From NCBI GenBank assembly GCA_021814695.1, contig JAKAHY010000001.1, positions 45,278-109,277 on the forward strand: a stretch of DNA of 64,000 bases, written 5' to 3'. The notes under the pieces were generated by a model, which worked only from the letters and a program-made list of their open reading frames with translations, ran no database searches and had not been told where the DNA came from. Below are positions 3,740 to 19,656 of the stretch, in pieces. Positions within the stretch are counted from its first letter, which is position 1. Each line of letters begins with the position of its first letter. This DNA is from a bacterium. Its GTDB lineage: Bacteria; Patescibacteriota; Minisyncoccia; UBA6257; JAGOQP01. The position numbers and the translations under genes are program-made.

Positions 3740-3753
3740 AATCCAGACAACTA

Positions 3754-3776: not shown

Positions 3777-3998
3777 GGTATGATAGAAATAGATTTATAT
3801 AAGTCTTTCTGACTTCAGCCGGAATTGATAAATATGCCAGAAATTTACCGCTAATAATGAGAAATAATCTACTATAATAACTGTCTATTTGATGAATGGT
3901 TAAGCCGTGCTATGATGATCGAGTAACACGTTTATTTTTTGGAAGAATAGTCGAACCTCTCAATTATAGATTTATAAAATTAACAATCAATAAAAAAT

Positions 3999-4208
3999 AT
4001 GACTGGCAGTATCAAAAAGATAGTCGAAGGCAAAGATTTTGGATTTATCACTTCCGATGACCAGAAACCTGGTGATAAGGACGTATTCTTTCATAAGGAG
4101 TCTCTTGTTGGAGTGACATTGGATGAACTTAAAGAAGGAGACAAAGTGTCTTACGATGTTGAATCGTCAGATAAGGGACCAAAAGCTGTTAATGTAAAAA
4201 AGGCCTAG
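3999..4208 (+). CDS. cspA: Cold-shock protein (CspA family)
   Basis: KDFGFITSDD...DVFFH are the RNP1/RNP2-like motifs. The protein is 69 aa. A long AT-rich 5' UTR precedes it. Confidence 0.9.
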   Translation: MTGSIKKIVEGKDFGFITSDDQKPGDKDVFFHKESLVGVTLDELKEGDKVSYDVESSDKGPKAVNVKKA

Positions 4209-4224
4209 TTTGCCTCAAATATAA

Positions 4225-4247
4225 AAAGACCCATCCGGGTCTTTTTA
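4225..4247 (+). terminator. Rho-independent terminator after csp
   Basis: aaagaccc-atcc-gggtcttttt. Confidence 0.7.
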
Positions 4248-4304
4248 TAAAGCTGTAAAAACGTGTCCGGCATGGTATATTTTTGTTACGGTAATACATA
4301 ACCT

Positions 4305-5267
4305 ATGTTAATTGATGATGTTATTATAAAAGTATCGGCGGGCCATGGGGGTAAAGGATCCGCAGTTTTCAATAAAAACATGATGACCTTAGGACCGGCC
4401 GGCGGAAGTGGCGGGAGAGGGGGTAATGTTTATGTCGAAGGCGTTTCGGATTTAAGCGCATTAAATCAGTTTCGGTACAAAAAAGAGATTTCAGCCGAGA
4501 ACGGCCGAGATGGAAGAGGGCAATTCAAAGACGGCAATGACGGGAAAGATTTATTGATGAATGTTCCTATTGGTACGGTTATCCATAATTTGAGTAATGG
4601 AACAGAGATAGAAATAACGAAACTTGGAGAAAGGCTGCTTTTGGCTAAGGGTGGTAATGGCGGAAAAGGAAACTTTCATTTCCGTTCATCCCGAAATACC
4701 TCTCCGACAGAATACCAGTCAGGATTGCCTGGAGAAAAATTCGAGTTTCGTTTGGAACTCAAGCTTATTGCGGATATCGGGCTTGTCGGGCTTCCCAATG
4801 CCGGGAAATCAAGTCTTTTAAATAAAATAACAAGCACTAAGGCTAAAGTGGCCAACTATCCATTTACAACTCTTGAACCGAATCTTGGGGTGTATTACGA
4901 ATTGATTCTGGCAGATATTCCGGGGCTGATAGAAGGGTCTTCAACCGGTAGAGGATTGGGGGTCAAATTTTTGCGCCACATAGAACGAACCAGAATACTT
5001 TTTCATCTGATTTCTTCCGAGTCCGATTCTCCCAAAAGGGATTATAAAATAGTCCGCGATGAATTCGGGGCTTACAATAAGGAACTTTTAAAAAAACCCG
5101 AATATATATTCCTTAGTAAAAGTGATCTGTCGGACGAAAAATCAGTTGAAACAAAACTTAAAGAATTGAAAAAAATAAATCCAAATTCAATCGCCATTTC
5201 CATAAACGACGAGAAAAGCATGGAAAAGGTTAAAAAAATCCTCAATTCCATAAAAGCGGAAAAATAA
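4305..5267 (+). CDS. obg: GTPase Obg/CgtA
   Basis: Glycine-rich Obg fold (GGKGSAVF, GGSGGRGGNVY, GGNGGKGN), G1 GLVGLPNAGKSSLL and G3 DIPGLIEG. Confidence 0.9.
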   Translation: MLIDDVIIKVSAGHGGKGSAVFNKNMMTLGPAGGSGGRGGNVYVEGVSDLSALNQFRYKKEISAENGRDGRGQFKDGNDGKDLLMNVPIGTVIHNLSNGTEIEITKLGERLLLAKGGNGGKGNFHFRSSRNTSPTEYQSGLPGEKFEFRLELKLIADIGLVGLPNAGKSSLLNKITSTKAKVANYPFTTLEPNLGVYYELILADIPGLIEGSSTGRGLGVKFLRHIERTRILFHLISSESDSPKRDYKIVRDEFGAYNKELLKKPEYIFLSKSDLSDEKSVETKLKELKKINPNSIAISINDEKSMEKVKKILNSIKAEK

Positions 5268-5269
5268 TT

Positions 5270-6256
5270 ATGACGGTGAAAAATATTTATATAGCGACAG
5301 CTTCCGTTTGCGCAGTGATTATTGCGGTATTTGTTTTATACTTTATGTTTTTGAGTTCTCCCGGGGGTGGGGCCGAAACGCGTCAATTTATTGTCGGCAG
5401 AAATCAGACAAGCACTCCTGCAATTATCGGAATGCTTAAAATCCAAGGATTTATCAGAAGCGAATGGGTATTTGACTTACTACTCAATTTTTACGGTTCG
5501 GGGTCAATTTTACCCGGAGGTTATGCCATCTCGAAATCTATGAATGCCTTGGATGTTGCCAAATTACTGTCCAAAAATCCTTCACAATTATGGGTAGTAA
5601 TACCGGAAGGATTAAGAAAAGAAGAAATAGCAAATATTCTTTCTCAAAAACTGGGATGGACCGATTCTCAGAAATCGGAATGGATTACCAAAGATACGAC
5701 GGCCGACTCAAATTATTCAGAAGGAGTATATTTTCCCGATACTTATCTTATACCCGTTGGAGAAACTCCTATCCAAACGGCAAACCGTCTGAGAGCGCAT
5801 TTTGAAGAAAAATTTTCTCCATATTCAAAAACAGCGTCTGAAAAAAATATAAAGTGGACGACAGTACTGACATTGGCATCAATAATTCAGCGGGAGGCAG
5901 CCGGTACGGGCGATATGGCTTTAATTTCTGGAATCCTTTGGAATCGACTCTTGGCTTCGCCGCCGATGAAGCTTCAAATTGATGCTACGGTTCAATATGC
6001 TCGCGGAGATACCGGTGGCGGATGGTGGGCTCCGATTACGGTTGCGGATGAAAATATTAATTCTCCTTACAATACTTATCTTCATTCGGGCCTGCCACCG
6101 CACCCGATCTGTAATCCCGGAATTGAAGCAATCAAGGCTGCCTTGTCGCCGGAGACTACCGATTGCTTATATTACATCCATGATTCATCCGGAATAATAC
6201 ATTGTTCTGCAACTTATAAGGAACATCAGCAAAATATTCAGAAATATTTGAAGTAA
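5270..6256 (+). CDS. mltG: Endolytic murein transglycosylase MltG (YceG family)
   Basis: N-terminal TM helix and a YceG-like C-terminus (SPYNTYLHSGLPPHPICNPG, ...LYYIHDSSG). Confidence 0.85.
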   Translation: MTVKNIYIATASVCAVIIAVFVLYFMFLSSPGGGAETRQFIVGRNQTSTPAIIGMLKIQGFIRSEWVFDLLLNFYGSGSILPGGYAISKSMNALDVAKLLSKNPSQLWVVIPEGLRKEEIANILSQKLGWTDSQKSEWITKDTTADSNYSEGVYFPDTYLIPVGETPIQTANRLRAHFEEKFSPYSKTASEKNIKWTTVLTLASIIQREAAGTGDMALISGILWNRLLASPPMKLQIDATVQYARGDTGGGWWAPITVADENINSPYNTYLHSGLPPHPICNPGIEAIKAALSPETTDCLYYIHDSSGIIHCSATYKEHQQNIQKYLK

Positions 6257-6370: not shown

Positions 6371-7165
6371 ATGGAAAAAGCCAAAGGGTTTCTCTTTGAT
6401 ATTACCAAATGTAAGCTCTGCGGAGCCTGCTGGATTGCCGATAAAGAACGCAACAAACTGCCGATTCCCGAAGGTGATTTCACGAAAGATAAGCTTTCGG
6501 AAAATGCTTTTTTGGAGATGGACAGAAGGCATGACAGAGGAGTCAGATTTTCCTGTATGCATTGCCTGATTCCTACCTGCGCTTCTGTTTGCCCCGTGGC
6601 TGCTTTCGAAAAGACTTCCATCGGCGCGGTAATTTATCACAAAGACCGTTGCATCGGATGCAGATACTGTGTTTTCGGGTGCCCGTTTAATGTTCCAAAA
6701 TATGAGTGGGATAAACCGCTTCCTTATGTAAGAAAGTGCGATTTCTGTTATTCCAGAATTATTGACGGCAAACAACCGGCATGCGCCCAAGCGTGTCCGA
6801 CAGGAGCCCTGATTTTTGGAAACAGAGATGATTTGATCCTCGAGGCTCATAGGCGCATAAGAGAAAACTCCAATTATGTTGATCATATATATGGTGAGCA
6901 TGAAGTTGGAGGAACGTCTCTTTTGCTGATTTCCGATATTTCCATGTATAAGCTTGGCTATCCGGGAAATTTGTCCGATGGGGCCGTACCGTCTTTGACT
7001 TGGGAAGTTTTGGAAAAGATTCCTAACGTAGTGCTTATAGGCGGAACATTTTTGGCCGGATTGTGGTGGCTTACCAACAGACGAAATGAAGTAATGCAAG
7101 CCGAATCAGGAAAGAAAGATAATTCTTCTGATACCGAGTCCGGAAGCGAGGGAGGTGGAAAGTGA
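6371..7165 (+). CDS. 4x[4Fe-4S] ferredoxin-type iron-sulfur subunit (HybA/PsrB/NrfC/DsrO-like) with C-terminal TM anchor
   Basis: Four Cys clusters: CKLCGAC, CMHCLIPTCASVCP, CIGCRYCVFGCP and CDFCYS...CAQACP. Strong SD AAGGAGGAGGAG. No obvious signal peptide. C-terminal hydrophobic helix. Confidence 0.85.
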   Translation: MEKAKGFLFDITKCKLCGACWIADKERNKLPIPEGDFTKDKLSENAFLEMDRRHDRGVRFSCMHCLIPTCASVCPVAAFEKTSIGAVIYHKDRCIGCRYCVFGCPFNVPKYEWDKPLPYVRKCDFCYSRIIDGKQPACAQACPTGALIFGNRDDLILEAHRRIRENSNYVDHIYGEHEVGGTSLLLISDISMYKLGYPGNLSDGAVPSLTWEVLEKIPNVVLIGGTFLAGLWWLTNRRNEVMQAESGKKDNSSDTESGSEGGGK

Positions 7166-8724
7166 AAAAACTTCTGAAGTCGGTAAGGCTTTGGTGGCTA
7201 TTACCGATGGCGGTTTTTGGAGCCGGCGGATACAGCATCTTCGTAAGATTCGTTAAAGGACTAGGAGCAAGCACTCATCTTAGCGACTCATTCCCTTGGG
7301 GTCTTTGGGTAGGATTTGATGTTTTGTGCGGAGTAGCGTTAGCTGCGGGAGCTTTTACTTTGAGCGCGGCAGTGTACGTTCTTCATCTTGAAAAATACAA
7401 ACCATTGGTGCGTTCCGCTATCCTGACCGGTACTATCGGATATCTTCTGGTTATTTTCGGTCTGATTATGGATTTAGGACATCCATACCGGATTTGGCAT
7501 CCGCTAATCATGTGGAATCCACATTCGGTGATGTTTGAAATCTCATGGTGTGTAACGCTGTACACGACCGTGCTATTTATGGAGTTCAGTCCGTTTCTGT
7601 TTGAAAAGCTGAAATGGAAAAAAGCTCTTAGGGCAGTGCACGCTGTAATCATTCCGCTTGTAATTTTAGGAGTCGTTCTATCAACGTTGCACCAGTCGTC
7701 ACTGGGGTCACTGTTTCTCATCGTACCTTATAAGCTGAATCCTCTATGGTATACGCCTTGGCTGCCGGTATTTTTCTTTATGTCGGCAATTGCTCTCGGT
7801 TGTGCCATGGTGATTGTTGAATCCTTCATCAGCTCGGTTCTGTTCAGAAGGGGATTGGAAATCGACCTTTTGTCAAATTTGGGCAAGGTTCTTGTTGTTA
7901 TTCTGTCCATTTATGGACTGGCGCGATACCTGGACTTGTCCAGTCGGGGCGCTCTCGGGTTAATTTTCCAACCAGGATTCGAACATGCGATGTTTTTGGC
8001 AGAGATTCTTCTGGCTATCATCGCTCCCATTGGCCTGCTCATATTTCCGAGAGTACGTCGGAATAAACTCGGATTGTTTATGAGTGCCACAATGGTTGTT
8101 GTCGGATTTATTCTCAACCGATTCAATACCAGCATGACCGGAATGGTCCGTTTCTCGGGAGTTAAATATTTACCGAGTTGGATGGAGATATCGGTATCTT
8201 TCATGTTGCTGACGATAGGGTTGATTCTTTTTGCTATAGCAGCCAAGCATTTGAAGATTTTTGACGAAGATTCTCCATGTCTATTACCATGGCAGACATG
8301 CAGGGATAATGTAGTTTGTTGTTTGCCGACTCCGGCCAAGGTTGCAATATTCTCAGCGTGGGCATTTGCATTGGTGCTGATTTGGACAGGAGTCAATGAC
8401 TTTGCAAGATTTAAGCCCTTGAATCATCCTACTCATACCGAATCGGCGGCCAAAAGCGAGCCTAATGATTTATCTCAATACCCTAATCTTCCTAAGGATT
8501 TTACCTTCTCTAAAACTGACCCGGACATTGGTTTGGTGACATTCAGCCATTCTGACCACTTTCTTGTTGGTGCCGAATGCAAGGATTGCCACGAGCATGC
8601 ATTCAGTATTATCAGTACCGATAAGAAAGGCGCAATAACTGATTATCATTCTCAAAAATATTGCGGCAGCTGCCATGACGGTAAATCGGCGAGTAACGAT
8701 TGTATCAGTTGCCACAAGAAATAA
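7162..8724 (+). CDS. NrfD/PsrC/HybB-like polytopic membrane subunit fused to a C-terminal triple-CxxCH (tri-heme cytochrome c-like) domain
   Basis: About 10 TM helices with the NrfD-like pattern (GLWVGFDVLCG...). The C-terminal ~70 aa carry CKDCHEH, CGSCHDG and CISCHKK. The start overlaps the FeS gene by 4 nt. Confidence 0.8.
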   Translation: MKKLLKSVRLWWLLPMAVFGAGGYSIFVRFVKGLGASTHLSDSFPWGLWVGFDVLCGVALAAGAFTLSAAVYVLHLEKYKPLVRSAILTGTIGYLLVIFGLIMDLGHPYRIWHPLIMWNPHSVMFEISWCVTLYTTVLFMEFSPFLFEKLKWKKALRAVHAVIIPLVILGVVLSTLHQSSLGSLFLIVPYKLNPLWYTPWLPVFFFMSAIALGCAMVIVESFISSVLFRRGLEIDLLSNLGKVLVVILSIYGLARYLDLSSRGALGLIFQPGFEHAMFLAEILLAIIAPIGLLIFPRVRRNKLGLFMSATMVVVGFILNRFNTSMTGMVRFSGVKYLPSWMEISVSFMLLTIGLILFAIAAKHLKIFDEDSPCLLPWQTCRDNVVCCLPTPAKVAIFSAWAFALVLIWTGVNDFARFKPLNHPTHTESAAKSEPNDLSQYPNLPKDFTFSKTDPDIGLVTFSHSDHFLVGAECKDCHEHAFSIISTDKKGAITDYHSQKYCGSCHDGKSASNDCISCHKK

Positions 8725-8817
8725 GAGATAAAAATTAATAATCAACGCAGTTGACTGTTCGGCTAAAAGTATTAAGATGAAGCCAGAAACTCACAACCAA
8801 CCCAAAAAGGAGGAGGC

Positions 8818-9267
8818 ATGGGACCGCTGGTAGTTGTGGTGCTCACCATGGCCGTTTGCATCTTTCTGTTATTCCTGTTTCTCTTTTTCCTGATGTGGAG
8901 CTCGTGTCGGTTTGAAAAATGGTTCAGTAAGTTTGAGGAAGAGGTGAAGGAACCAAATACCTTGTGGCAGAAATTTTGCGCTTGGATTGGTAATATCACA
9001 ATGTCCACTCTCACCATATTTATGTGTGAGAAATGTAAGCAAGCATGTGAGGAAAAGAAGGAGATGCTCATGAGGGCCCTATTGTTTTCTTTCTGGACCG
9101 GCCTTGTTGGCGTTATCGGCTACTATCTCGGTGTTTACGGAATGTCACCGAAATTCCTTTACGCTCTTGCGGTCGGAGGTTTCTCCGTCTTGGTTTTTGT
9201 CGCGATCCGTTATCGCGCCCACAAAACTCTCAAGTCCGAAAATTCGGACGTCGAGAAACAAAATTAA
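8818..9267 (+). CDS. Hypothetical membrane protein (2-3 TM, Cys-containing loop)
   Basis: Strong SD AAAGGAGGAGG. Hydrophobic segments. It sits directly downstream of the FeS/NrfD pair, and a terminator-like hairpin with a T-run follows it (~9282-9308). Confidence 0.5.
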   Translation: MGPLVVVVLTMAVCIFLLFLFLFFLMWSSCRFEKWFSKFEEEVKEPNTLWQKFCAWIGNITMSTLTIFMCEKCKQACEEKKEMLMRALLFSFWTGLVGVIGYYLGVYGMSPKFLYALAVGGFSVLVFVAIRYRAHKTLKSENSDVEKQN

Positions 9268-9334
9268 GTACTTTAAACACAGCCATCCATTTTGGGTGGT
9301 TTTTTTGTATGTTAAAGTGGTACTATTTTTAAAT

Positions 9335-9907
9335 ATGAAAACCGCAATCATTGTTCACGGAATGCCGTCAAAAAAAGAATATTTCAGCCCCAAAAAACCG
9401 TCCCCGTCAAACAACCACTGGATTGCTTGGGTACAAAGACGGCTTATTCTTAAAGGGATTCTTGCCCAAACCATAGAACTTCCCGAACCCTATAAGCCGG
9501 TTTATGAGAAATGGAAATCGGTTTTTGAGCAATTTAAAGTAGATAAGGACACGGCGCTTATAGGCCACAGTTGTGGAGGTGGATTTCTTGTCAGATGGTT
9601 GAGCGAAAACAAAAAGAGAGTCGGTAGAGTTGTTTTAGTGGCTCCCTGGATTGACCCTAATCATGTTTTAGAAACGGGTTTTTTTGATTTTAAGATAGAT
9701 CCGAATCTGTTGAAAAGAATAAAAAACCTGACAATATTCATATCCAAAGATGACGATAGCGATATTATAAAAAGCGTTCAACTGTTGAAGGAAGTTCTAA
9801 AAGGAAAAAACATAAAAATTATTGAGTTTGAAAATATGGGCCATTTTACTTTAGGCGACATGAAAACAGAAAAGTTTCCGGAACTGTTGAGTGCTATTTT
9901 AAAATAA
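9335..9907 (+). CDS. Alpha/beta hydrolase, RBBP9/YdeN-like serine hydrolase
   Basis: IIVHGMPS, the GHSCGG (GxSxG) nucleophile elbow, and a ~190-aa size. I used the internal ATG at 9335 because the longer ORF from 9104 overlaps the upstream gene. Confidence 0.65.
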   Translation: MKTAIIVHGMPSKKEYFSPKKPSPSNNHWIAWVQRRLILKGILAQTIELPEPYKPVYEKWKSVFEQFKVDKDTALIGHSCGGGFLVRWLSENKKRVGRVVLVAPWIDPNHVLETGFFDFKIDPNLLKRIKNLTIFISKDDDSDIIKSVQLLKEVLKGKNIKIIEFENMGHFTLGDMKTEKFPELLSAILK

Positions 9908-9987
9908 AGATATTTTTGACATTGACGCCAAGAGGTGTTTTTATATAATCAGCAACCAACATATATCAGCTAGGGAAAGGAGAGTTC

Positions 9988-10764
9988 ATGAAGTGGCCAA
10001 CTCAAGTAGTTCTTGTACGGCACGGGCAGTCGGAATTTAACGTTCTTCGGGTTATAAAAGAGCGTGATCCTTTGTATCGGAAATTTAAGCAAGCTTATGA
10101 AGAAGATTTTACTTCGGATAAAGCCAGAAATCTTGCGGAAATGGTTCTTGAAAAATACAGATTGGATCTCGGTGATTACCAAACACGCCTGACATCAATA
10201 GGAATTGATCAGGCAAAAATTACGGGAGCCGGATTGAGCTTGGACATTGAGCCTCCCGACGTAATCTACGTTTCTCCGTATTTTAGAACGCGCCAGACAC
10301 TCGATGCTATGACAAATGCCTGGCCGGAACTATCATCTGCAAAAACAACAACGGATGACAGAATCCGGGAACAGGAACACGGGATACAGATACTTTATAA
10401 CGATTGGCGGGTATTTCATGTTTTTCATCCCGAACAAAAGAGGATGAGGGATCTTTTCGGGGCCTACTGGTATCAATATCCTCAAGGAGAATCAATGGCT
10501 CAGGTTCGTGACAGAATCAGATCGTTCCTGACGACTCTCGTACGTGAACATGCCGGACAAAAAGTCCTGCTTGTAACTCACCACGTAACCATTCTTTGCT
10601 TTCTTGCCTCTATGGAGCGCTTAACTCCCGAAAAGGTAACAGATATGGATAAGGATTTGAAACCGGTTAACTGCGGAGTTACCTTCTACATCGGCAACCC
10701 CGATAAAGGTCAGGATGGACGTCTCGAATTGACGGAGTACAACCGCAAGTATTATTCGGATTAG
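9988..10764 (+). CDS. Histidine phosphatase family protein (phosphoglycerate mutase-like)
   Basis: LVRHGQSEFN is the RHG catalytic motif. SD GGAAAGGAGAG. Upstream promoter-like TTGACG-17-TATAAT. Confidence 0.75.
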   Translation: MKWPTQVVLVRHGQSEFNVLRVIKERDPLYRKFKQAYEEDFTSDKARNLAEMVLEKYRLDLGDYQTRLTSIGIDQAKITGAGLSLDIEPPDVIYVSPYFRTRQTLDAMTNAWPELSSAKTTTDDRIREQEHGIQILYNDWRVFHVFHPEQKRMRDLFGAYWYQYPQGESMAQVRDRIRSFLTTLVREHAGQKVLLVTHHVTILCFLASMERLTPEKVTDMDKDLKPVNCGVTFYIGNPDKGQDGRLELTEYNRKYYSD

Positions 10765-10905
10765 TATCAGCAGCAGATAAACGCTGCTTTTTAATATAAA
10801 ATTTGTCGATTCCTGCCATGCTAATAATCCACTTTACAATCCGGATAATGTTCTATACTTATACAAAGCGATAAAAGGTTATTTTAATAAGCACTCATAA
10901 TAAAT

Positions 10906-11379
10906 ATGAAAAAAACTTGGATTATTATTCTGGTGATAGTGGTAGTTATTATAGTCGGCTACTTACTTTGGATGAATCCGACTCAACCGGCATATCAGCA
11001 ACCGGCCGCAACAACAGGGGGCGGCGCCAATCAACCGGCACCGGCATTAATTCTTAATACAGCCATAGACCCGACTCTTGGCGCATATCTTGTGGCATCA
11101 AATGGAATGGCTCTTTATGTTTTTGCAAATGATAAACCCGGAATAAGTAATTGCGCCGGCGTTTGCGCAACCAACTGGCCGCCTTATGAAGTGACGGCAA
11201 CTACGCCACTGGCGGCAGCATCCGGCATTGATGGAAATCTTAATACAATTATAAGAAGTGACGGCTCTATGCAACTCACTTATAATTCCATGCCTCTTTA
11301 TTTTTGGCATCTAGATTCAAAACCGGGAGACGTTACGGGTAATGGTTTTGGAGGGGTTTGGTTTTTGGCAAAACCATAA
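10906..11379 (+). CDS. Secreted/lipoprotein-like protein with COG4315/Lipoprotein_15-type repeats
   Basis: N-terminal TM/signal segment. Repeats of the G.YLV..NGM.LYVF..D......C.G.CA..WPP type occur twice. Confidence 0.55.
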   Translation: MKKTWIIILVIVVVIIVGYLLWMNPTQPAYQQPAATTGGGANQPAPALILNTAIDPTLGAYLVASNGMALYVFANDKPGISNCAGVCATNWPPYEVTATTPLAAASGIDGNLNTIIRSDGSMQLTYNSMPLYFWHLDSKPGDVTGNGFGGVWFLAKP

Positions 11380-11461
11380 TCCGATAAGAATAATTAAAGT
11401 GTTCTGATCTTGTGCGTGACGTCGGCGTGCATTGTTTTAGTTTATAGTAATCAAATCTACG

Positions 11462-11854
11462 ATGAATAAATTACCGTTTCACATTCTTAGAATAGGGATT
11501 GCCATAACATTTATCTGGATTGGATTAATGATATTTAAGGACCCGCAAGGATGGAGTTCGTTTATCCAGCCTTGGGCAGCCAATCTTATTCCAATTCCTA
11601 TTCAGCAGGCAATGATTATTGCGGCAATTGCCGATGTTTTAATAGGACTGCTTCTTCTGGCTAACCTTTGGGTTTGGATTGTAGCGGCTGTGGGAGTTTT
11701 AAATATTGCTGCAGTTCTTATCGTTTCCGGAATTACCGGAGTTACTGTCAGGGATATAGGCCTTCTTGCCGCCGCTGTGGCATTGGCGATTGATTCAATG
11801 CCTTCTGTAATAATGTCAAAACTATTTAAAAAACAGATTCGAAAAAATTATTAA
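11462..11854 (+). CDS. Hypothetical membrane protein (4 TM)
   Basis: Hydrophobic profile only. Confidence 0.45.
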   Translation: MNKLPFHILRIGIAITFIWIGLMIFKDPQGWSSFIQPWAANLIPIPIQQAMIIAAIADVLIGLLLLANLWVWIVAAVGVLNIAAVLIVSGITGVTVRDIGLLAAAVALAIDSMPSVIMSKLFKKQIRKNY

Positions 11855-11896
11855 ACAAAATAAAAGGTCGTATGATTATAAATAATTACATATCCT

Positions 11897-12097
11897 ATGT
11901 TTACGCTCGCTTGTAAGGATTTGGGTACTCCGGAATGTGGCTATATAGCCAAAGAAGATGACAGCGAGAAAGCGGTGCACACCATGCTTAGACACGCACA
12001 AGAAACGCATGCCGATAAATTAGAGGAATTATCCAGAAAAATGAATGAGAAAGAAATTTTTGAGTTGATGCTTTCTAAAGTGAGAAAAGAACCATAG
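11897..12097 (+). CDS. DUF1059-like small protein
   Basis: The MFTLACKDLG..ECGYIA...E...H...HA N-terminus is typical of DUF1059. A terminator hairpin follows (~12112-12140). Confidence 0.5.
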   Translation: MFTLACKDLGTPECGYIAKEDDSEKAVHTMLRHAQETHADKLEELSRKMNEKEIFELMLSKVRKEP

Positions 12098-12261
12098 AAC
12101 CTTATATTAAAAATGGCTCCATTTTGTGGGGCCTTTTTTATTATAACACAAGTAGGCTTTTTGGCTATAAATCTATTGTTTACACGGAATAATTTGTGCT
12201 ACTATTTTGGCAGAACACTTTCGCTCGTTGACAATAAGGCGGGCCGAAAGGGAGGAAACTG

Positions 12262-15036
12262 ATGTCTAGGAAGCAGGTAGTGGCACCTCCGAAGACCAAA
12301 ACGGAATTGCTGATCGATACGGTCTTTAATTTCATGACGGATAATCCGTCGTATATTTTCAAGGGATTTGGGGATGCGGATAAGTTTGAGATTACGAAAA
12401 AGAAATTCGCCAAGGTTTTGGAATCGCTAGTGGAATCCAGGCACCTTGTCCGAATTTCAGTCGACGATTCGGGTGAGCCTTGGTATTTTTCCAACGGCTA
12501 CAACCATTATTCGCCGAACTTTCTTTTTGAGGTAATCCCAGCCGGCGTCAGGGACGATATCCTCAGGCCTCTTGAAAGAGGGGACGAGAAATCGATTTCC
12601 GATTTGGCTCGAAACTATTTCGGTTCCGAGACCGTAGGTCTCAATTTCATCGAAACGACTCTTGAATATTTCGTTTCCAGAAAGCTCATCGGTTCCAGTG
12701 GCAGAAAGGCATTGCGTCTTTACAAAAAGACTCAACTTGGGCTGGAGCTTGGTATCGATAAGCAAAGCATGGATACGATGGCTAATCGAGAATTGGAAAG
12801 CACGCTGCTTTTGCAACGCAAGGGCGAAGTGCTATCCAAAATAAATTCTCTGGAAGATATCGATAAACTTTTGGACGAGGAGTTGGAGTCTATCATCGTG
12901 GGTAATATTGACGTCACATCAAGCACCGACGGCGATTTCTTCAATGTTGTATTTCTTAACGAAATTCTTTTCGGCAACAAGTTTACCGATACCGACATTT
13001 TGAATTGGGCACTTGAGAGGGTAAATCCCAACCTTACGGTTGCAAGCGGCTTGATTCAGGGAAATTTCCTTGGCGTTAAGATGGATAAGGCGAGAATCCT
13101 TGCCGAAAATTCCGGTCTTAACGAGATCGATGCCCAATTCAGGGCTGCTAAACTTCTCAACGAGAAGCTTGAGCAGGTCACCAAAGGACAGGTTTTTAAT
13201 GTCCTTGGCGACGACGATTGGGATCTTGCCGACAGCTACGCTCAGCTGATGCACAGGGCCGAAGGCGGCATCATCAGCTATGGATTCAATTCCAAGTCTT
13301 TGAGCGATGAGCTCAAGCGGCGGTTGGATATGCTTGCTTACAGGCGTAAGCGGCGCATCCAGTATGAGATCATTACTCCCTATCAACTTCGCGTCGGTCG
13401 TTCTCTCTTGAACCGAGATGAGGTTTGGGAAGCTACGGCTAACGGCGACGATAGCAAGGATAGGGTGTATAAGGGCGAATATCGTCTGATTATCGAAATT
13501 CTTGTAGCTAAGAAAGTCGGAATTGATTATCCCAAGTCGTACGATAAGGTTGTGGACATCGGATCATTGTTTGACGGAGATATGAGCAAGAAGAGGATTA
13601 TCACGCCCAACAGTCTTTTCTTAAAGGCAGGGGACAGGACTATTCGCTTCACTCATAACCCTTCGTTTTCGAACATCACTCAGTATTGGAATACTATCGA
13701 TGTTTTGAATCGTATCATGCGCAGTCTCGGTGCTCGAAAGACGGAAGAGATTCCGTTTGTCGTAGCCGAAGGCCATCAGGAGCGATTTTTTGCCACCTTC
13801 ATTCCTTCGGGTTTGAACGACAAGACCGACGACGGTCATTGGTTTATGAACCTTCCGGGTTTGCAGAATCCGATTTTGCAGGCCAAAGGAAGAATTCCCG
13901 AGTTCGACTCAAGGATTTTGAGTTCCAAGTCTCATCGGCAGATTACCTTCCGTAAGGAACCGGTAACTCCGGGAGTTCTGGATTTCGGAGTCCATATGGA
14001 CGGTCGGGTGCAATTCAGGATTTTGAACCACATGGTCAAGAACGTCATTGAACGTTCTGCCGGAATGCCGGAAGAGGTGCATAGGGTTGCTTTCCTTACG
14101 GACTTGCAATTCGCTTCGCTTACGATGCATCCCGAACTTGTAATGAAGTTCCTGGATTATGCGCTATTCACTCTGGGCTGCGATGCGGTTATGATCGGCG
14201 GCGACGTCATTCAGGGCATCAACTATCCGCAGACGTTTTCCGAAAACAGGCCATTCAGGCTTGTGAGTATCGATTCCCAACAGCGATTCGTTCTGGCAAC
14301 ACTTTTCCCGTTCCTGGCTACAGGACCGAAGCTTAAGAAGGTCCTTGGAGTTATCGGTAACCATGAGTGGAACACGTTTGGCGCCAATCTTACCGGTCCC
14401 AATTTCCTGGCATTTTTGGAACAGGTGCTTCAGGGTTATGTTCTTGGGATGAAGACGGCGGGCGGTACTCCAACTTTGGAAGATATTGCTATTGTCAGTC
14501 GTATTCGCATGCTTAGCGTTGAAGCCAAACAGGGCGGAGCGATTGTAAACTGGCCGTTTATTTCTCAAGAATTTTCGGGATTCAAGGTTGCGATGTCCCA
14601 TCAGTTCCAGCGCTTCGGCGGCGGAACTCCTGTGGGCCAGCAAATGAAGTGGATTGAGAATATGTCAACTGCCGCAAGCGATTACGATGTTCTTGTCGGC
14701 GGCGACAAGCACTCCATTTGGATGGCTCAGGTTGCCGATAAGCTTTTGTTGCAGCTGGCAGCGGCGGCTCACCAGAGCGGTTACGAGCTGCACACCGGTC
14801 TTCGCAGCACGATTATGTTCACCGACATCACATTCTCCAACAAGGACGGCATCACGGTTGAGATGGTTCCTCGGGGATTTCTCGAAAATTATTACACCTG
14901 CGTTTCGCCGATTCTTGCCGGTAAGGACGAGCTTTTGAAGCTTCCTGCCCCCGGAACTCCGGGATACGATCAGGGCAAGCTTTCTCCTTATGTAGAGTCA
15001 ATTATCGACAATATCACTCAGTATCGTCACGTATAA
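12262..15036 (+). CDS. Large (924 aa) uncharacterised protein with C-terminal calcineurin-like phosphoesterase-like motifs; locally GC-rich
   Basis: SD GGGAGGAAACTG. C-terminal motifs IGGDVIQG (GDxx) and VIGNHEW (GNHE), while motif I is degenerate (FLTDLQF). The N-terminal ~600 aa show nothing I recognise. GC is visibly higher than in the flanks. Confidence 0.75.
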   Translation: MSRKQVVAPPKTKTELLIDTVFNFMTDNPSYIFKGFGDADKFEITKKKFAKVLESLVESRHLVRISVDDSGEPWYFSNGYNHYSPNFLFEVIPAGVRDDILRPLERGDEKSISDLARNYFGSETVGLNFIETTLEYFVSRKLIGSSGRKALRLYKKTQLGLELGIDKQSMDTMANRELESTLLLQRKGEVLSKINSLEDIDKLLDEELESIIVGNIDVTSSTDGDFFNVVFLNEILFGNKFTDTDILNWALERVNPNLTVASGLIQGNFLGVKMDKARILAENSGLNEIDAQFRAAKLLNEKLEQVTKGQVFNVLGDDDWDLADSYAQLMHRAEGGIISYGFNSKSLSDELKRRLDMLAYRRKRRIQYEIITPYQLRVGRSLLNRDEVWEATANGDDSKDRVYKGEYRLIIEILVAKKVGIDYPKSYDKVVDIGSLFDGDMSKKRIITPNSLFLKAGDRTIRFTHNPSFSNITQYWNTIDVLNRIMRSLGARKTEEIPFVVAEGHQERFFATFIPSGLNDKTDDGHWFMNLPGLQNPILQAKGRIPEFDSRILSSKSHRQITFRKEPVTPGVLDFGVHMDGRVQFRILNHMVKNVIERSAGMPEEVHRVAFLTDLQFASLTMHPELVMKFLDYALFTLGCDAVMIGGDVIQGINYPQTFSENRPFRLVSIDSQQRFVLATLFPFLATGPKLKKVLGVIGNHEWNTFGANLTGPNFLAFLEQVLQGYVLGMKTAGGTPTLEDIAIVSRIRMLSVEAKQGGAIVNWPFISQEFSGFKVAMSHQFQRFGGGTPVGQQMKWIENMSTAASDYDVLVGGDKHSIWMAQVADKLLLQLAAAAHQSGYELHTGLRSTIMFTDITFSNKDGITVEMVPRGFLENYYTCVSPILAGKDELLKLPAPGTPGYDQGKLSPYVESIIDNITQYRHV

Positions 15037-15049
15037 ATAGAACATTTTT

Positions 15050-15077
15050 CAGCTCCGCTTGGGAGCTGATTTTTTTA
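15050..15077 (+). terminator. Rho-independent terminator
   Basis: cagctcc-gctt-gggagctg followed by ATTTTTTT. Confidence 0.7.
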
Positions 15078-15116
15078 TATATGCTATAATAAGTTTAATA
15101 AGTAACAAACAGTAAT

Positions 15117-15353
15117 ATGAAACAAAACGAACATATTTTGGACAGAATTATTAGAGTATTGATTGCGTTGGGGTTATTTTATGTGGGCATCACCTGGTCC
15201 ATGTCCAGTTTTCTGAGAATTGTTTTGGCAATTGTCGGAGGGATATTAATTGTTACTGCCGTCACCGGATATTGCGCCCTGTATTCACTGTTTGGAATAA
15301 ATACAAAAAAATCTTCTTCAGATACTAAGGAACCCGATAAAAAAGGTCAATAA
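15117..15353 (+). CDS. DUF2892/YgaP-like small membrane protein
   Basis: D..IR...G..L...G......GG.L..TA.TGYC.LY.L.GI.T pattern. Confidence 0.5.
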   Translation: MKQNEHILDRIIRVLIALGLFYVGITWSMSSFLRIVLAIVGGILIVTAVTGYCALYSLFGINTKKSSSDTKEPDKKGQ

Positions 15354-15447
15354 TTAATAGCGATGCTAATTTACAAATTACACACGAATGTACAAATATT
15401 ATTTATGTCATTCGAGTGTATTCGCGTATTTGTGTCGCGTGTAAAGT

Positions 15448-16038
15448 ATGAAATACGAAGCAAAAAACTTCGAGCATCTCTTGGGTTTAAAGGGATTTAG
15501 CGACAATGCCTTAAAAACTCATTTTGCTCTCTATCAGGGTTATGTAAACAATACAAATAAATTAAGAGATGAGTTGCACGAATTGGCTAATGGGGGAAAA
15601 CTCGATTCGGTTCAACACGCCGAACTGAAAAGAAGGCTCGGATGGGAGTTTGACGGAATGAGGCTGCATGAATATTATTTCGGCGCTCTTTCTAAAGAAT
15701 CCCAGCCATTATCGGAATCTAGCGCTTTGTACAAGAAGATAGAAAAAGATTTCGGAAGTTTTGGCGATTGGGAAAAAATGTTTCGTGCCGTTGCATCACA
15801 ACGGGGGATAGGGTGGGCGATTTTGTACTATGACGTTCACGGTGATCAATTGTTGGACGTCTGGGTCAATGAGCATGATGCGGGACATTTGGCGGGATGT
15901 GTGCCTCTTGTGAATATGGATGTATTTGAACATGCATTTATGCTGGATTACGGAACAAAAAAAGCCGATTACATTTCAGCCTTTATGGATGCCGTGGATT
16001 GGAAAGAGGTTTCCAAACGTTTCGATTCCGCCAAATAA
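15448..16038 (+). CDS. sodA: Fe/Mn superoxide dismutase family protein (divergent)
   Basis: The C-terminal DVFEHAFMLDYGTKKADYISAFMDAVDWKEVSKRF matches the SOD motif DVWEHAYYL..N.R.DYI.AFW.VVNW. Candidate metal ligands H, H, D and H are present. Confidence 0.7.
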   Translation: MKYEAKNFEHLLGLKGFSDNALKTHFALYQGYVNNTNKLRDELHELANGGKLDSVQHAELKRRLGWEFDGMRLHEYYFGALSKESQPLSESSALYKKIEKDFGSFGDWEKMFRAVASQRGIGWAILYYDVHGDQLLDVWVNEHDAGHLAGCVPLVNMDVFEHAFMLDYGTKKADYISAFMDAVDWKEVSKRFDSAK

Positions 16039-16890
16039 TTATTTTAGCGGAAGTTTTAATGCGGCCGGTTGAGGAGTTTTTCCTTCCGGCTGTATTTTTG
16101 TTATCACAAATGAACCGTCTGGTTGTTTTGAAACATCCAGTAACTTAACTCTTTTGGTTTTGATTAGCGTATACGTTCCTGGATCCGGGTTAAGGGCCAA
16201 TATTTTCCTGGCGATTATTTCCGGGTCTTCATTTGCCAGGTCTACGAATCCATCTTCGGTAGTGAATTTTTTTGTATATGTAGCCTTAGATTCGTCCTGC
16301 ATTTCCGGGACTATTTTATCTTCCGAAAAAAGAGGAATAGTTCTGATAAGCGCATTAGCGCAAGCATCTGCCAAAGCTTCCTGCAGCCGGGAATAATTCC
16401 AAAACTTGTCGGAGATATCCATCGATTCTTGGGCTAAAATAGGCCCGTGATCCATTTCTCTATCCAGAAGATACAGAGTTGCTCCGGTTATTTTATCGCC
16501 TCCAAGTATGGCCGCTTGTATAGGTGATGCGCCTCTATATTTGGGCAAAAGAGACGGGTGTGTTCCGATTATTCCCTGAGGAAATGAGTCTATCAGAGAT
16601 TGGGGTATTATTTTCGAGTAAGCCGCAACAACTCCAAATTTAAGTTTTTTGATTTCAGAGATCTCTGAAATTTTTACCAAATCGTCTTTTGTTTCCGGTT
16701 GAAGTATTTTTATTGGAAGCTTATTTTCAAGGATATATTTTTTTGTTTCCGGAGGAGTTAAAATCCGTTTTCTCCCAAACGGTTTGTCGGGGTTACAAAT
16801 TAAAACTTCTGGCGCCAAGTCATTGGCTATCAATTTTTCCAATATAATTCTGGCAAAAACCGGACTGCCGAAGAAAGCGTAAGATGACAT
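16039..16890 (-). CDS. fmt: Methionyl-tRNA formyltransferase
   Basis: HPSLLPKYRGASPIQAAILGGD, together with the N-terminal formyltransferase fold. It is adjacent to def. Confidence 0.9.
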   Translation of the reverse strand: MSSYAFFGSPVFARIILEKLIANDLAPEVLICNPDKPFGRKRILTPPETKKYILENKLPIKILQPETKDDLVKISEISEIKKLKFGVVAAYSKIIPQSLIDSFPQGIIGTHPSLLPKYRGASPIQAAILGGDKITGATLYLLDREMDHGPILAQESMDISDKFWNYSRLQEALADACANALIRTIPLFSEDKIVPEMQDESKATYTKKFTTEDGFVDLANEDPEIIARKILALNPDPGTYTLIKTKRVKLLDVSKQPDGSFVITKIQPEGKTPQPAALKLPLK

Positions 16891-16908
16891 GAATTTATGA
16901 TTATTATT

Positions 16909-17424
16909 TTATTCGAATTTCTTCACGTCTTTCGATTTATCTATAAACAATACTCCACCAAGATGATCTATCTCGTGTTGAAAAATTCTTGCCAAGAAAC
17001 CCTCGGCTTTGACCTTAACAGGTCTATTATTCTTATCATATCCGCTGACCGTAATTTTATCGGCCCTATCGACTGTCCCATAATATCCGGGAACACTAAG
17101 GCAACCCTCCTGGTCTGAAACTATTTTTTTGGAAATAGATTCTATTTTAGGGTTAAATATGGCATAAAACTTTCCCTGATAACCCCTACCATCATCGGAG
17201 GGAAGTTGAGCGACAAATATTTGCGCATTGACTCCAATTTGGGGAGCGGCCAATCCGATGCCATGGTTTAATACCATCATTTGCCTCATAAAAAGAACAA
17301 GATTGTTAATCTCCGATTTGGAATAATCCGAAAATTTAAAAGCTTTGGGCTTTTCCCTTAGGAAAGATTCCTCACTTTTAATTTTAACTGTCCAGATTTT
17401 TTTGTCGGTTTCTTTTTCGGCCAT
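16909..17424 (-). CDS. def: Peptide deformylase
   Basis: Motifs GIGLAAPQIG, EGCLSVPG and QHEIDHLGG. Confidence 0.9.
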   Translation of the reverse strand: MAEKETDKKIWTVKIKSEESFLREKPKAFKFSDYSKSEINNLVLFMRQMMVLNHGIGLAAPQIGVNAQIFVAQLPSDDGRGYQGKFYAIFNPKIESISKKIVSDQEGCLSVPGYYGTVDRADKITVSGYDKNNRPVKVKAEGFLARIFQHEIDHLGGVLFIDKSKDVKKFE

Positions 17425-17741
17425 GGTTCTTTTTTTAATTTTAATTTATTTAATAAACCTTTTTGTTTGATTAATTCCATGAAATAAGCGCCTCCATTGA
17501 GTACCTTTGGGCGTTGGAGGATATCTTTAGCAATCCCCATTAGAGTTTGCTTATCTATGTATTTAGCCAATTTTATATACAGAGCTTTATGCTTCTCGTC
17601 CTCAAGCATTTGGGCTATAACCAGTCCGGTGTGCTGAAAGTCTCTGTATACGTGGCTTTTTTCTTTTCGGCCGGCAAGTGTCTTCAGGTAATCTTTTTCA
17701 AGCATCATTCCAATGATATAATAGAAAGCTGATAAAACCAA
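17358..17741 (-). CDS. Hypothetical protein (lysine-rich C-terminus), 3' end overlaps def start by 67 nt
   Basis: The ORF is 127 aa. Its true stop and start are uncertain. Confidence 0.35.
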   Translation of the reverse strand: MVLSAFYYIIGMMLEKDYLKTLAGRKEKSHVYRDFQHTGLVIAQMLEDEKHKALYIKLAKYIDKQTLMGIAKDILQRPKVLNGGAYFMELIKQKGLLNKLKLKKEPWPKKKPTKKSGQLKLKVRNLS

Positions 17742-17746
17742 GATTT

Positions 17747-18346
17747 ATGCGACTTTTTATAGCGGTAAAAATACCGGATGAAATCAAAGAAAAAATCCAC
17801 AATTCCTTTTTGTATTCCAGAGACTCCCTTGAATTCGCTCGATTTACCGAAACTGACAATCTGCACATAACATTGGTATTTTTGGGAGAAGTCGAAGATG
17901 CGTTACTGGAAAGAATAAAAAGAATAGTGGAATCGGTCACAAATAAATATTCCCAAAAACGGATAGAATTAAGCGGTATTGTGATCGGACCGGATATAAA
18001 TACTGCAAGAATGATATGGCTTAAGCTTGGTGATGATTCTCAAAAATATCTTGAATCGATATCTCAGTCACTAAAAAAAGAACTAAAAGATAAAAATATC
18101 CTTTTTGACGGCAGAAATTTTTTTAATGGACATGTTACTCTGGCCAAGTTTGGCCAAAATTGGCAATCAAAATATGATAGTAAAAACGAAAAAGGAAAAA
18201 CCGAGGATATTAATTTTATAAAAGAAACGCTTCCCGAAACATTTGAGGCGCATTTCGATTCAAAATCCATAACTCTTTTTTCCTCCAAAAAAATAGACGG
18301 GAAGAGAATATATGAGCCGTTGTTTGAGTCGGATTTTAAAGGATGA
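17747..18346 (+). CDS. thpR: RNA 2',3'-cyclic phosphodiesterase (2H phosphoesterase, LigT/ThpR)
   Basis: Two HxT/Sx motifs (HITLVFLG, GHVTLAKFG). Confidence 0.8.
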   Translation: MRLFIAVKIPDEIKEKIHNSFLYSRDSLEFARFTETDNLHITLVFLGEVEDALLERIKRIVESVTNKYSQKRIELSGIVIGPDINTARMIWLKLGDDSQKYLESISQSLKKELKDKNILFDGRNFFNGHVTLAKFGQNWQSKYDSKNEKGKTEDINFIKETLPETFEAHFDSKSITLFSSKKIDGKRIYEPLFESDFKG

Positions 18347-18360
18347 TATAATTTTAACCT

Positions 18361-19656
18361 ATGGAATTTTTAAAAATAATCAAGAATCTTAAGCGGGCAG
18401 GCTCTGTTGCGATAATTGCTATTGTAGTTGCCGCCATTGTCGGGAGTTCTTATTATCTCGGATTTGTTAAGGGGCAACAGCAGTCCCAAAAAATTGTAGT
18501 TGAAGACGTTAAAAACATAAACAACCCTAACACGGGAGATTTTAGCCTCTTTTGGGAAGTCTGGAACGATATTAAATCACAATTTGTGACCGCTTCCAGC
18601 ACGGATAATAATCAAAATCTTGTTTACGGAGCTATTTCTGGCCTGGTCTCATCGCTTGGAGACCAATATTCGGTTTTTTTCCCGCCAAAAGAAGCAGCCA
18701 GCTTCAATCAGGAAATCAGCGGGAAATTCGATGGAATTGGAGCTGAAATCGGACTCAATGAACAGAATCAGATTGTGGTAATCGCCCCACTTAAAGACAC
18801 GCCGGCTTATAATGCCGGAATTAAATCGGGGGATATCATCATAAAAATTAATGGGGAATTAACAACCGGAATGTCCGTTGATGCGGCGGTTAAGCAAATT
18901 CGTGGGCAAAAAGGAACGACTGTTACATTAAATATCTACCGCCAAGGATGGAAAGATGCCAAAGACATACAAATTGTGCGGGATACTATTCAGGTTCCAA
19001 CCCTGGATTATAAGCAAATTGACGCATCCGGAAATGAGAATCCTTCCGGATCGATAGCTTACATAAGAATTTATAATTTCTATGAAAATGCGGATCTTCT
19101 TTTCTATCAATCCGCGCTCAGAGTTGCTACCTCCAAAACCAAAGGGATAATAATAGACTTAAGAGATAATCCCGGAGGGTATCTTGATTCCGCAGTCAAT
19201 ATAGCCGGATGGTTTGTAGATAAAGGAAAGAATGTAGTAACCGAAGAATCCAGGGATAATAAAAACAACGAAGTTTTTGTTTCCAAGGGGCCGTCTATTT
19301 TCAAAAACATGCCCTTGGTTGTCATAGTCAATAAAGGTTCGGCATCGGCATCCGAAATTCTTGCAGGAGCCCTTAAAGAAAGTGATGGGGGAACAATTGT
19401 TGGAGAAAAAAGCTTCGGAAAGGGGACTGTTCAGGAGCTGGTTCCGCTTAGCGGAGGCTCAATGCTTAAACTTACAATAGCTCACTGGGTCACTCCTCTT
19501 GGCCATTTGATAGACAAAAACGGGATTTTACCCGATATTATCGTGACAGCTCCGACATCAACCGCAACAACGACACAGAGCGGGTATGATAACGATTTAT
19601 CCAAAGATGTAGTATTCAAGAAAGCGTTGGAAGTATTGGATAGCAAGATAAAATAA
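18361..19656 (+). CDS. ctpA: Carboxyl-terminal processing protease (S41, PDZ-containing)
   Basis: N-terminal TM helix, a PDZ domain (GIKSGDIIIKING), and an S41 core (IIDLRDNPGGYL, VVIVNKGSASASE). Confidence 0.85.
   Translation: MEFLKIIKNLKRAGSVAIIAIVVAAIVGSSYYLGFVKGQQQSQKIVVEDVKNINNPNTGDFSLFWEVWNDIKSQFVTASSTDNNQNLVYGAISGLVSSLGDQYSVFFPPKEAASFNQEISGKFDGIGAEIGLNEQNQIVVIAPLKDTPAYNAGIKSGDIIIKINGELTTGMSVDAAVKQIRGQKGTTVTLNIYRQGWKDAKDIQIVRDTIQVPTLDYKQIDASGNENPSGSIAYIRIYNFYENADLLFYQSALRVATSKTKGIIIDLRDNPGGYLDSAVNIAGWFVDKGKNVVTEESRDNKNNEVFVSKGPSIFKNMPLVVIVNKGSASASEILAGALKESDGGTIVGEKSFGKGTVQELVPLSGGSMLKLTIAHWVTPLGHLIDKNGILPDIIVTAPTSTATTTQSGYDNDLSKDVVFKKALEVLDSKIK

Follow-up and report, generated by a model that had tools for sequence, protein, structure and literature searches.

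What does a 924-residue protein of a patescibacterium do, and how did its gene come to stand out so sharply in base composition from the genes around it? The gene lies at positions 12262 to 15036 (+) of a 64,000-nucleotide stretch of contig JAKAHY010000001.1 (assembly GCA_021814695.1), which we call the window, and it runs as a single open reading frame (ORF) from ATG to stop; it is a genuine gene. The explanation that we find best, and to which we would give a probability of roughly 0.5, is that it encodes a cytoplasmic, predicted active two-metal phosphodiesterase of an uncharacterised family, and that it came horizontally from a Patescibacterium of higher GC content.

A metallophosphoesterase domain with a conserved active site

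An AlphaFold2 model made from an alignment of 18 sequences has a mean predicted local distance difference test score (pLDDT) of 80.8 and a predicted template modelling score of 0.78, with pLDDT of about 85-95 across most of residues 570-900. When this model is compared by Foldseek with the Protein Data Bank (PDB), 96 matches are found at E<=1e-3, and all 50 of the matches listed are phosphoesterase-fold chains at probability 1.00, so that the C-terminal part has the two-layer beta-sandwich fold of the metallophosphoesterases (MPEs). The list is led by DP1 of the archaeal polymerase PolD (8ppt_A, E 1.2e-7, with DP1 chains of 5ihe, 6hmf, 6t8h and 6knb down to 5.5e-6), and purple acid phosphatase, SbcD, Mre11, LpxH and Vps29 follow. 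Comparison of sequence profiles gives a similar ranking. A profile of the isolated C-terminal domain, built from 24 diverse members, finds 33 PDB sequence matches with DP1 again first (6knb_A, E 3.6e-7), then SbcD (9e-4) and the T. maritima Mre11 homologue (1.4e-3); it alone worked, and a PDB sequence search with a single sequence or with the full-length profile returned nothing meaningful. The Pfam model Metallophos (PF00149) reaches residues 608-706 at E 0.011 and also matches 9 of the 18 close homologues (E down to 2.1e-5). Among characterised proteins the domain is therefore closest to nucleases, DP1 in the first place and then SbcD and Mre11. This supports an original prediction, read from the DNA without database searches, which had described a calcineurin-like phosphoesterase C terminus of a nuclease or phosphodiesterase-like kind and had proposed a Foldseek search with an AlphaFold model of this part as a check.

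The closest structural neighbours of all are found among viral models (BFVD), as uncharacterised phage metallophosphatases at E 1.8e-11 to 1e-9. Several of these are entered in the database as 'DNA polymerase II small subunit' and others as SbcD/Mre11-like exonucleases; they are shorter proteins, of 250-500 aa, and have no sequence similarity to the family (no match in PHROGs or by tblastn).

We counted the conservation of active-site residues across 130 full-length family members (Table 1). The motifs picked out in the original prediction are present, as D614-L-Q616, G647-D-V-I-Q-G652 and G699-N-H-E-W, but its description of them as degenerate is not upheld, as D614, D648, N700, H701 and H780 are kept in 129-130 of the 130 members, H817 in 125 and Q616 in 121. 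The 924-aa protein has motifs II, III and IV and departs from a literal D-x-H in motif I, and the family positions map one-to-one on the DP1 metal ligands D363, H365, D407, N453, H500, H563 and H565. H701 is equivalent to the essential proton-donor His of Mre11 (H85) and DP1 (H451), and it is the loss of all catalytic residues that marks true pseudo-phosphoesterases (PMC4996933). The first His of motif V is replaced by Asp815, both here and in the closest relatives of the protein, and this residue is a plausible metal ligand.

The Gln of motif I also has a precedent. The ADPRibase-Mn-like family conserves D[V/I]Q, the Gln carbonyl ligates metal 1 in a highly active enzyme, and a change of this Gln to His lowers the efficiency by about 11-fold (PMC4334965). 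Because Q616 is present in 121 of the 130 members, and because D-x-Q is competent in ADPRibase-Mn, the motif is a fixed trait of the family and not a product of decay.

Family distribution, base composition and locus history

The protein had been taken for an orphan, but a search of 5.8 billion proteins finds 18 full-length homologues at 39-57% identity, all of them unnamed or 'hypothetical', and a profile search of 1.84 billion cluster representatives (at 50% identity) finds 182 clusters at E<=1e-3 and 109 at E<=1e-30. A sister genome has an ortholog of 924 aa at the same locus that is 92.6% identical, and between the two the ratio of nonsynonymous to synonymous substitution rates (dN/dS) is 0.068; the gene is under strong purifying selection. 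Family members are about 700-1280 aa long, fragments aside, and the carriers among species-representative genomes are Paceibacterota, Yanofskybacteria, Jorgensenbacteria, Saccharibacteria and Minisyncoccia. A relative of 1023 aa (22% identity, E 6e-18; locus L021, 4948-8019) occurs in one Woesearchaeota (DPANN) archaeon, and beside its gene lies another that reads by eye as undecaprenyl-diphosphate-synthase-like. Judged from these searches the family is small and distinctive, almost confined to Patescibacteria, and it crosses the boundary between bacteria and archaea between two groups of ultra-small symbionts.

Other routes to an annotation were less productive. The whole protein has no match in NCBIfam, PHROGs v4 or PADLOC-DB 2.0 (the latter two at E<=10), distant members are all named 'hypothetical', a Pfam scan of 44 long, distant members gives no informative domain fusion, and we found no paper on the family. 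As tblastn against 50,697 phage records found nothing, a phage origin of the gene was rejected.

The composition of the gene sets it apart from the rest of the window. Its GC content is 0.480 against a mean of 0.406 for the 63 other ORFs (z 1.96, rank 2 of 64), and its GC content at third codon positions (GC3) is the highest of the 64 (0.559, z 2.83; 0.56 against 0.40 in the window). GC at second positions (GC2) is ordinary, so that amino-acid content is not the cause. The step falls at the ends of the gene, from 0.37-0.39 before it to 0.44-0.53 within it and back to 0.35-0.40 after it. In synonymous-codon usage, scored as a divergence statistic against a per-gene multinomial sampling null, the gene is the top outlier among 58 genes with a z of 27, where the median gene has 0.7. 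The original prediction had called the gene visibly GC-richer than its neighbours and had suggested that GC3 and codon usage be compared across the contig; with that comparison made within the window, the gene is its strongest compositional outlier, and the contrast is stronger than was claimed. The background of about 38% GC given there agrees with the immediate flanks (0.35-0.40) and not with the window as a whole, which is 40.3%. The 20-mer GGCGGCATCATCAGCTATGG that was quoted in it occurs once, at 13264.

The gene is a GC outlier just in the 40% GC lineage. In hosts of 46% and 56% GC it matches its flanks (0.468 against 0.462, and 0.563 against 0.560). Further insight comes from relatives of the window that we located via the superoxide dismutase (SOD) gene adjacent to it, namely loci L024 (89% SOD identity), L026 (82%) and L027 (74%). 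The L024 ortholog has the same elevated GC3 (0.569 against 0.559). Between the window and L024 the gene has a synonymous divergence (dS) of 0.60, with sliding windows of 0.46-0.85, against 1.27-2.27 for the flanking YgaP, SOD, Fmt, Def and YceG genes. The content of the locus varies as well. L024 is without a block of about 5.9 kb (window 6371-12097) between YceG and the gene and has about 1 kb there (L024 880-1927), the site upstream of YgaP-SOD-Fmt-Def is taken in L026 by a membrane protein and in L027, at 3304-6069, by a 921-aa protein of another family (family B, 16 members), whose gene exceeds its flanks in GC content and has a DEDDh/RNase T-like exonuclease gene after it. Because of this composition, together with a dS below that of the flanks and the variable content of the locus, we think it more likely that the gene was acquired, or acquired anew, once the host lineages had separated, at a locus with turnover, in agreement with the horizontal acquisition suggested in the original prediction.

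Family B itself is not detected from the 924-aa family by BLAST, phmmer or the family HMM. Profile-profile comparison gives weak links, with P 3e-4 for the C-terminal part by hhalign and E 1.5e-3 for the whole, and some of its motifs (TDTHYGS, NDDWTQGHHFP, GTGNHF and GDKHF) read like those of an MPE; on this basis the two families are probably homologous.

A different history would have the gene ancestral at this locus, its synonymous sites being kept GC-rich by selection or by a bias peculiar to the gene. The ortholog at the identical L024 position fits such a history, as its GC3 is almost equal even though flanking synonymous sites are saturated, synonymous constraint would produce the low dS, and there are no insertion scars. 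However, a gene that tracks its genome in hosts of 46% and 56% GC has no intrinsic need for about 48% GC, and the ordinary GC2 takes away an explanation by amino-acid content. In addition, the GC-rich family-B gene at the same site points to a hotspot for foreign DNA, and about 5.9 kb of content differs between YceG and the gene across the sister genomes. We therefore consider an ancestral gene somewhat unlikely.

Two other features of the window were recorded in the course of these comparisons. The block at 6371-12097 holds genes for a 4Fe-4S protein, an NrfD-like protein, two hydrolases, a histidine phosphatase, a lipoprotein, DoxX and DUF1059. The second outlier in codon usage (z 14.7) is an unrelated low-GC gene at 45282-48080, which encodes a KAP-family P-loop NTPase of 932 aa (Pfam E 6e-29) and matches the PADLOC defence models QatA, PifA and PDC-S20 (E 5e-24 to 1e-6); it belongs to a low-GC island at 45282-50991 (GC 0.30-0.36 against 0.40), which may be a separately acquired island of defence type.

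Architecture of the N-terminal and central regions

Pfam and NCBIfam scans of the N-terminal 600 residues give no match, and to this extent the earlier statement that they show no recognisable domain is true; profile comparison and modelling nevertheless reveal structure in them. We propose that the N terminus probably contains two winged-helix modules (Table 1). Compared with the PDB, the profile of this region has matches just at E 0.05-1; the sub-threshold matches of module 1 are MarR-like and archaeal winged-helix chains (E 0.55-0.99) and those of module 2 are the RosR winged-helix protein and a retron winged-helix domain (E 0.3). In Pfam, sub-threshold matches are seen to HTH_45 in 5 of 18 members and to HTH_27 and MarR_2 in single members; scattered as they are, these matches all indicate the winged-helix class of fold. 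At the other end of the region, a conserved basic loop (SSKSHRQxTFRKEP, aa 553-567) precedes the hairpin connector, and the model is of low confidence there (pLDDT below 50 at aa 550-565).

The central domain may be related to the C-terminal one. Comparison of the two by hhalign, with 102-129 sequences, gives a score of 41.0 (P 4.6e-5), and 22 controls (a reversed profile, 20 column-shuffled profiles and the N-terminal region) score 9-16 (P 0.17-0.87). Motifs I-III fall in register, with E234xxxG238 opposite DxQxGS, SG263LxQG267 opposite GDxxQG, and G316DDD opposite GNHE; with shallower alignments the comparison gives E 0.013. The profile of the central domain has no significant match in the PDB, and its model (pLDDT 77) has no significant Foldseek match there, the weak ones including Mre11 (E 0.09) and lambda phosphatase (E 0.14), so that the case for a duplication is made by hhalign. 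From the aligned profiles the domain is probably an ancient internal MPE duplicate that has lost its metal ligands and gained a helical insertion. At the DNA level, positions 13046-13061 (SGLIQG, in the central domain) and 14201-14216 (GDVIQG, motif II) are 81% identical over 16 nt, which may be a faint echo of the proposed duplication, or chance.

The signals around the gene agree with the original prediction, which had noted a Shine-Dalgarno sequence and a terminator of its own (GGGAGG at 12250-12255 and a hairpin-T7 at 15049-15076). As the small gene before it ends in a separate terminator (12115-12133), the gene is a monocistronic unit. Its neighbours were also named correctly as DUF1059, DUF2892 and SOD, Pfam giving a weak DUF1059 match (E 0.004, under the cut-off), YgaP-like_TM (formerly DUF2892) and an Fe/Mn SOD.

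Table 1. Features of the gene and its product, with window coordinates and the basis of each assignment
Feature	Position	Strand	Basis or remark
Promoter-like site TTGGCA, 17 nt, GACAAT	12207..12235	+	Consensus scan, 9/12 matches; weak evidence
Shine-Dalgarno GGGAGG	12250..12255	+	6 nt before ATG; direct sequence reading
Coding sequence, 924 aa + stop codon, uncharacterised Patescibacteria family	12262..15036	+	ORF list, homologues
Probable winged-helix module 1, aa 13-77	12298..12492	+	AlphaFold2 helix-helix-helix-strand-strand, pLDDT 73-86
Probable winged-helix module 2, aa 85-156	12514..12729	+	AlphaFold2 helices, then two strands
Long helical linker, aa 167-211	12760..12894	+	Helices 167-193 and 197-211 in model
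Central domain, aa 212-566, probable degenerate internal phosphoesterase copy	12895..13959	+	hhalign
Conserved helical insertion in central domain, aa 347-437	13300-13572	+	Holds KxEYRLIIEI, the family's most conserved motif
Beta-hairpin + helix connector, aa 567-605	13960..14076	+	Model strands 571-589, alignment conservation
C-terminal MPE domain, aa 606-870	14077..14871	+	Foldseek, domain profile, sub-threshold Pfam
Motif I, D614-L-Q616, Gln for canonical His	14101..14109	+	D 130/130; Q 121/130, H 9/130
Motif II, G647-D648-V-I-Q-G652, then N-Y-P	14200..14217	+	GD 130/130; aligns to DP1 GDVVDGvgIYP
Motif III, G699-N700-H701-E702, then W	14356..14367	+	GNH 129/130; E702 121/130
Motif IV, H780	14599..14601	+	129/130
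Motif V, G814-D815-K-H817 (GHxH in most members)	14701..14712	+	815: H 119/130, D 9/130; H817 125/130
Conserved C-terminal tail, aa 871-924	14872..15033	+	P883, G887, P895, G905, S908, P909, E912 and I915 conserved
Intrinsic terminator	15049..15076	+	8-bp stem with 5 G-C pairs, 5-nt loop, T7; terminator scan and sequence reading

Substrate, partners and possible role

No constant partner gene is present in the window, in the sister assemblies or in about 20 loci of other genomes. The recurrent neighbour is a protein-L-isoaspartate O-methyltransferase gene (Pcm; PCMT, E 4e-55), adjacent and co-directional in 10 of 15 loci, which could reflect a functional link or mere conserved synteny. It lies upstream of the family gene in one clade and downstream in others (L006, L010, L012-L019) and is absent from the 64-kb window; on the all-against-all comparison of neighbours, Pcm as an obligate partner was rejected. 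Ddl and PGK recur near the family gene in the 15 loci as lineage synteny. PADLOC gives no signature of a defence island around the family gene. The 'effector' of the original prediction finds no support, as the protein has no signal peptide and no PADLOC or PHROG match, and its neighbours are mostly housekeeping genes.

Some individual loci have features of their own. A cytidine-deaminase-type gene adjoins the family member at L003 (12855-13865) and at L009 (3696-4379); the L009 gene matches Pfam dCMP_cyt_deam_1 (E 1.3e-11), and that of L003, without a Pfam match, shows by eye an HCEE...CCGNC motif and has adenosine deaminase and IMPDH genes immediately upstream. At L006 about 4.5 kb (14380-18858) downstream of the family gene and Pcm is without a called gene and is maybe an rRNA operon. 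At L023 (3600-13400) a distant member of 1283 aa, P0097, is encoded within about 10 kb of inserted DNA between rplX (L24) and rplN (L14). The same insert contains several hypothetical genes, four copies of a 55-nt repeat and an IS30-like transposase gene, the 3' end of which the ORF call joins in frame to rplX; there is an N-gap in this contig, and a misassembly is possible.

Comparison with known enzymes places the protein within the metallophosphoesterase superfamily without making it a member of any of the systems that it resembles. DP1 (5ihe, 6knb, 8ppt), the 3'-5' proofreading exonuclease of archaeal PolD, has the same layout of the dinuclear site, and six of its seven metal ligands and its catalytic His are kept in most family members; shared too are GD-x-x-x-G-x-x-Y-P and, downstream of motif II, a D..Q helix, as well as a G..Q..[FY][EQ] strand beyond motif V. 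The identity is 13-14%, however, and the motif I His is Gln in the family, whose hosts are bacteria in all cases but one; one account describes PolD as exclusive to Archaea (PMC10721889). The OB-fold insertion of DP1 is not evident in the model, where a two-strand hairpin (571-589) appears to precede the domain. DP1 works with DP2, and no DP2-like large gene adjoins the family gene in the ~20 loci. The 924-aa protein is also twice as long as DP1, with its probable winged-helix modules and an extra, apparently dead phosphoesterase-like domain. Identity as DP1 was rejected on the lack of a DP2 partner and the bacterial hosts, with no OB-fold evident in the model.

Mre11 and SbcD, the second-best group of matches, have the fold and the catalytic motifs in common with the protein, and their obligate dimer may be mimicked here by two phosphoesterase-type domains in one chain. 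They differ in that no Rad50/SbcC ATPase adjoins the family gene in the window or the related loci and no match to the capping domain was seen, and the similarity is marginal (E ~1e-3); identity as Mre11/SbcD was rejected for want of the ATPase partner. ADPRibase-Mn has the same D-[VIL]-Q motif I, with the Gln ligating metal 1 in a fully active enzyme (PMC4334965), but its size and architecture are entirely different, no preference for it is detected in sequence or fold, and with no overall similarity this identity was rejected too. The B-subunits of Pol alpha, delta and epsilon and Vps29 give a precedent for the central domain, as their fold is kept and their metal ligands are lost (PMC4996933); the dead copy here, whose MPE fold is probable, differs in being fused to a live one. 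The most apt description of the protein is a new variant in architecture, from an uncharacterised family, within a known superfamily.

From these comparisons the most likely reading is a predicted active, self-targeting nuclease or phosphodiesterase. We infer from the model and the conserved residues that D614, Q616, D648, N700, H780, D815 and H817 would hold a dinuclear metal centre in which water is activated, and that H701 would protonate the leaving group as it does in Mre11 and DP1. The winged-helix modules, together with the basic loop, would grip a nucleic-acid substrate, presumably DNA or RNA ends, and the dead central domain might pack on the live one and so replace the second subunit of an Mre11/SbcD-type dimer, which is a conjecture. 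The source of the transfer would be a higher-GC Patescibacterium and its destination the low-GC lineage, at a locus of varying content. In the cell the protein could act in repair, in genome conflict, or in processing imported DNA to feed nucleotide salvage.

Several observations count against this picture. The Pfam Metallophos score is 16.7 bits, under the gathering threshold of 21.5, and the fold matches to purple acid phosphatase, LpxH and Rv0805 are just about tenfold weaker than those to DP1, so that the substrate class is not settled by them. The winged-helix assignment consists of a secondary-structure pattern and sub-threshold matches, the duplication of the central domain is not confirmed by the fold search, and no Rad50/SbcC-like or DP2-like gene is found near the family gene in any of the ~20 loci examined. 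As to the transfer, neither direct or inverted repeats nor target-site duplications flank the gene, no tRNA gene lies nearer than about 9 kb, and selection at synonymous sites could be the cause of the low dS in its place.

The main rival possibility is that the protein is a hydrolase of small, nucleotide-type molecules (ADP-ribose, CDP-alcohols, 2',3'-cyclic or 3',5'-cyclic nucleotides, dinucleoside polyphosphates or cyclic dinucleotides) and not of polynucleotides, in which case the winged-helix modules would make it a signal-degrading regulator or an enzyme of nucleotide salvage. The D-x-Q precedent in ADPRibase-Mn can be cited for this, as can the fold matches to Rv0805, GpdQ, a 5'-nucleotidase and SapH. 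The neighbours include adenosine deaminase and IMPDH at L003, cytidine deaminase at L009, a NUDIX gene near the family-B gene of L027, and HIT-type or GalT-like genes, read by eye, near some loci; Patescibacteria, moreover, depend on nucleotide salvage. Set against these points, no ADPRibase-Mn chain occurs in the 33 PDB profile matches or among the 50 Foldseek matches listed, two independent methods both put nucleases at the head of their matches, these neighbour associations are inconsistent between loci, and a frame of about 900 aa with two modules of DNA-binding type would be unusual for a small-molecule hydrolase. We regard this possibility as improbable.

A nuclease could also serve as an exchangeable cassette in conflict or defence, whether anti-phage, anti-plasmid or anti-host, rather than in housekeeping repair or salvage. 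Such a role would suit a gene that is compositionally foreign with a dS below its flanks, whose site is taken in L027 by a barely related, GC-rich 921-aa protein of similar layout with MPE-like motifs and a DEDDh exonuclease next to it; it would also suit the distant member found with an IS30-like transposase in a ~10-kb insert inside a ribosomal-protein operon, and the phage proteins that are the closest structural neighbours overall. It is nonetheless doubtful, as there is no PADLOC or PHROG match and no tblastn match in the phage records, the gene is single and without a partner, its neighbours are housekeeping genes in most loci (Ddl, Pcm, PGK, HisRS), and the strong purifying selection comes with no diversifying sign, the protein being 92.6% identical where the adjacent SOD is 89%.

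The non-catalytic scaffold allowed for in the original prediction, a pseudoenzyme like the eukaryotic polymerase B-subunits or Vps29, could appeal to the replaced His of motif I, the Asp at the first His of motif V, the fold and profile matches to Vps29 and the Pol alpha B-subunit and the apparently dead central copy, but it is very unlikely because the remaining metal ligands and the catalytic His are kept in 125-130 of the 130 members under a dN/dS of 0.068, because true pseudo-phosphoesterases lose all catalytic residues (PMC4996933), and because Gln and Asp would, by analogy, both be competent metal ligands.

The preferred reading, an active phosphodiesterase acquired horizontally, can be extended to a single-chain, 'pseudo-dimeric' nuclease of DP1/Mre11 type with its own DNA-recognition modules, specific to ultra-small symbionts (Patescibacteria, with an outlier in DPANN archaea), horizontally mobile, at a hotspot where family B, of equal size and layout, substitutes for it in sister genomes, and representing a new class of exchangeable cassette for genome conflict or defence, or for the processing of scavenged host DNA. 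We put this forward as a speculation that is unlikely to be correct.

Patescibacteria make up a large share of bacterial diversity, they lack many canonical pathways, and much of their gene content is without an assigned function. To our knowledge a DP1-like phosphoesterase lineage is not otherwise described in bacteria. Nothing in our analysis overturns expectations, and if the protein is an ordinary small-molecule phosphodiesterase the result is a routine improvement of annotation; what is noteworthy is the DP1-like lineage in bacteria, the proposed live-plus-dead tandem and the turnover hotspot. The tandem, if true, would be a compact alternative to the Mre11/SbcD dimer, and the locus is an actual example of gene flow, and of replacement at a hotspot, among Patescibacteria. 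If the protein is a nuclease, it would be a candidate to serve these organisms in repair, in the scavenging of DNA or in the processing of DNA ends.

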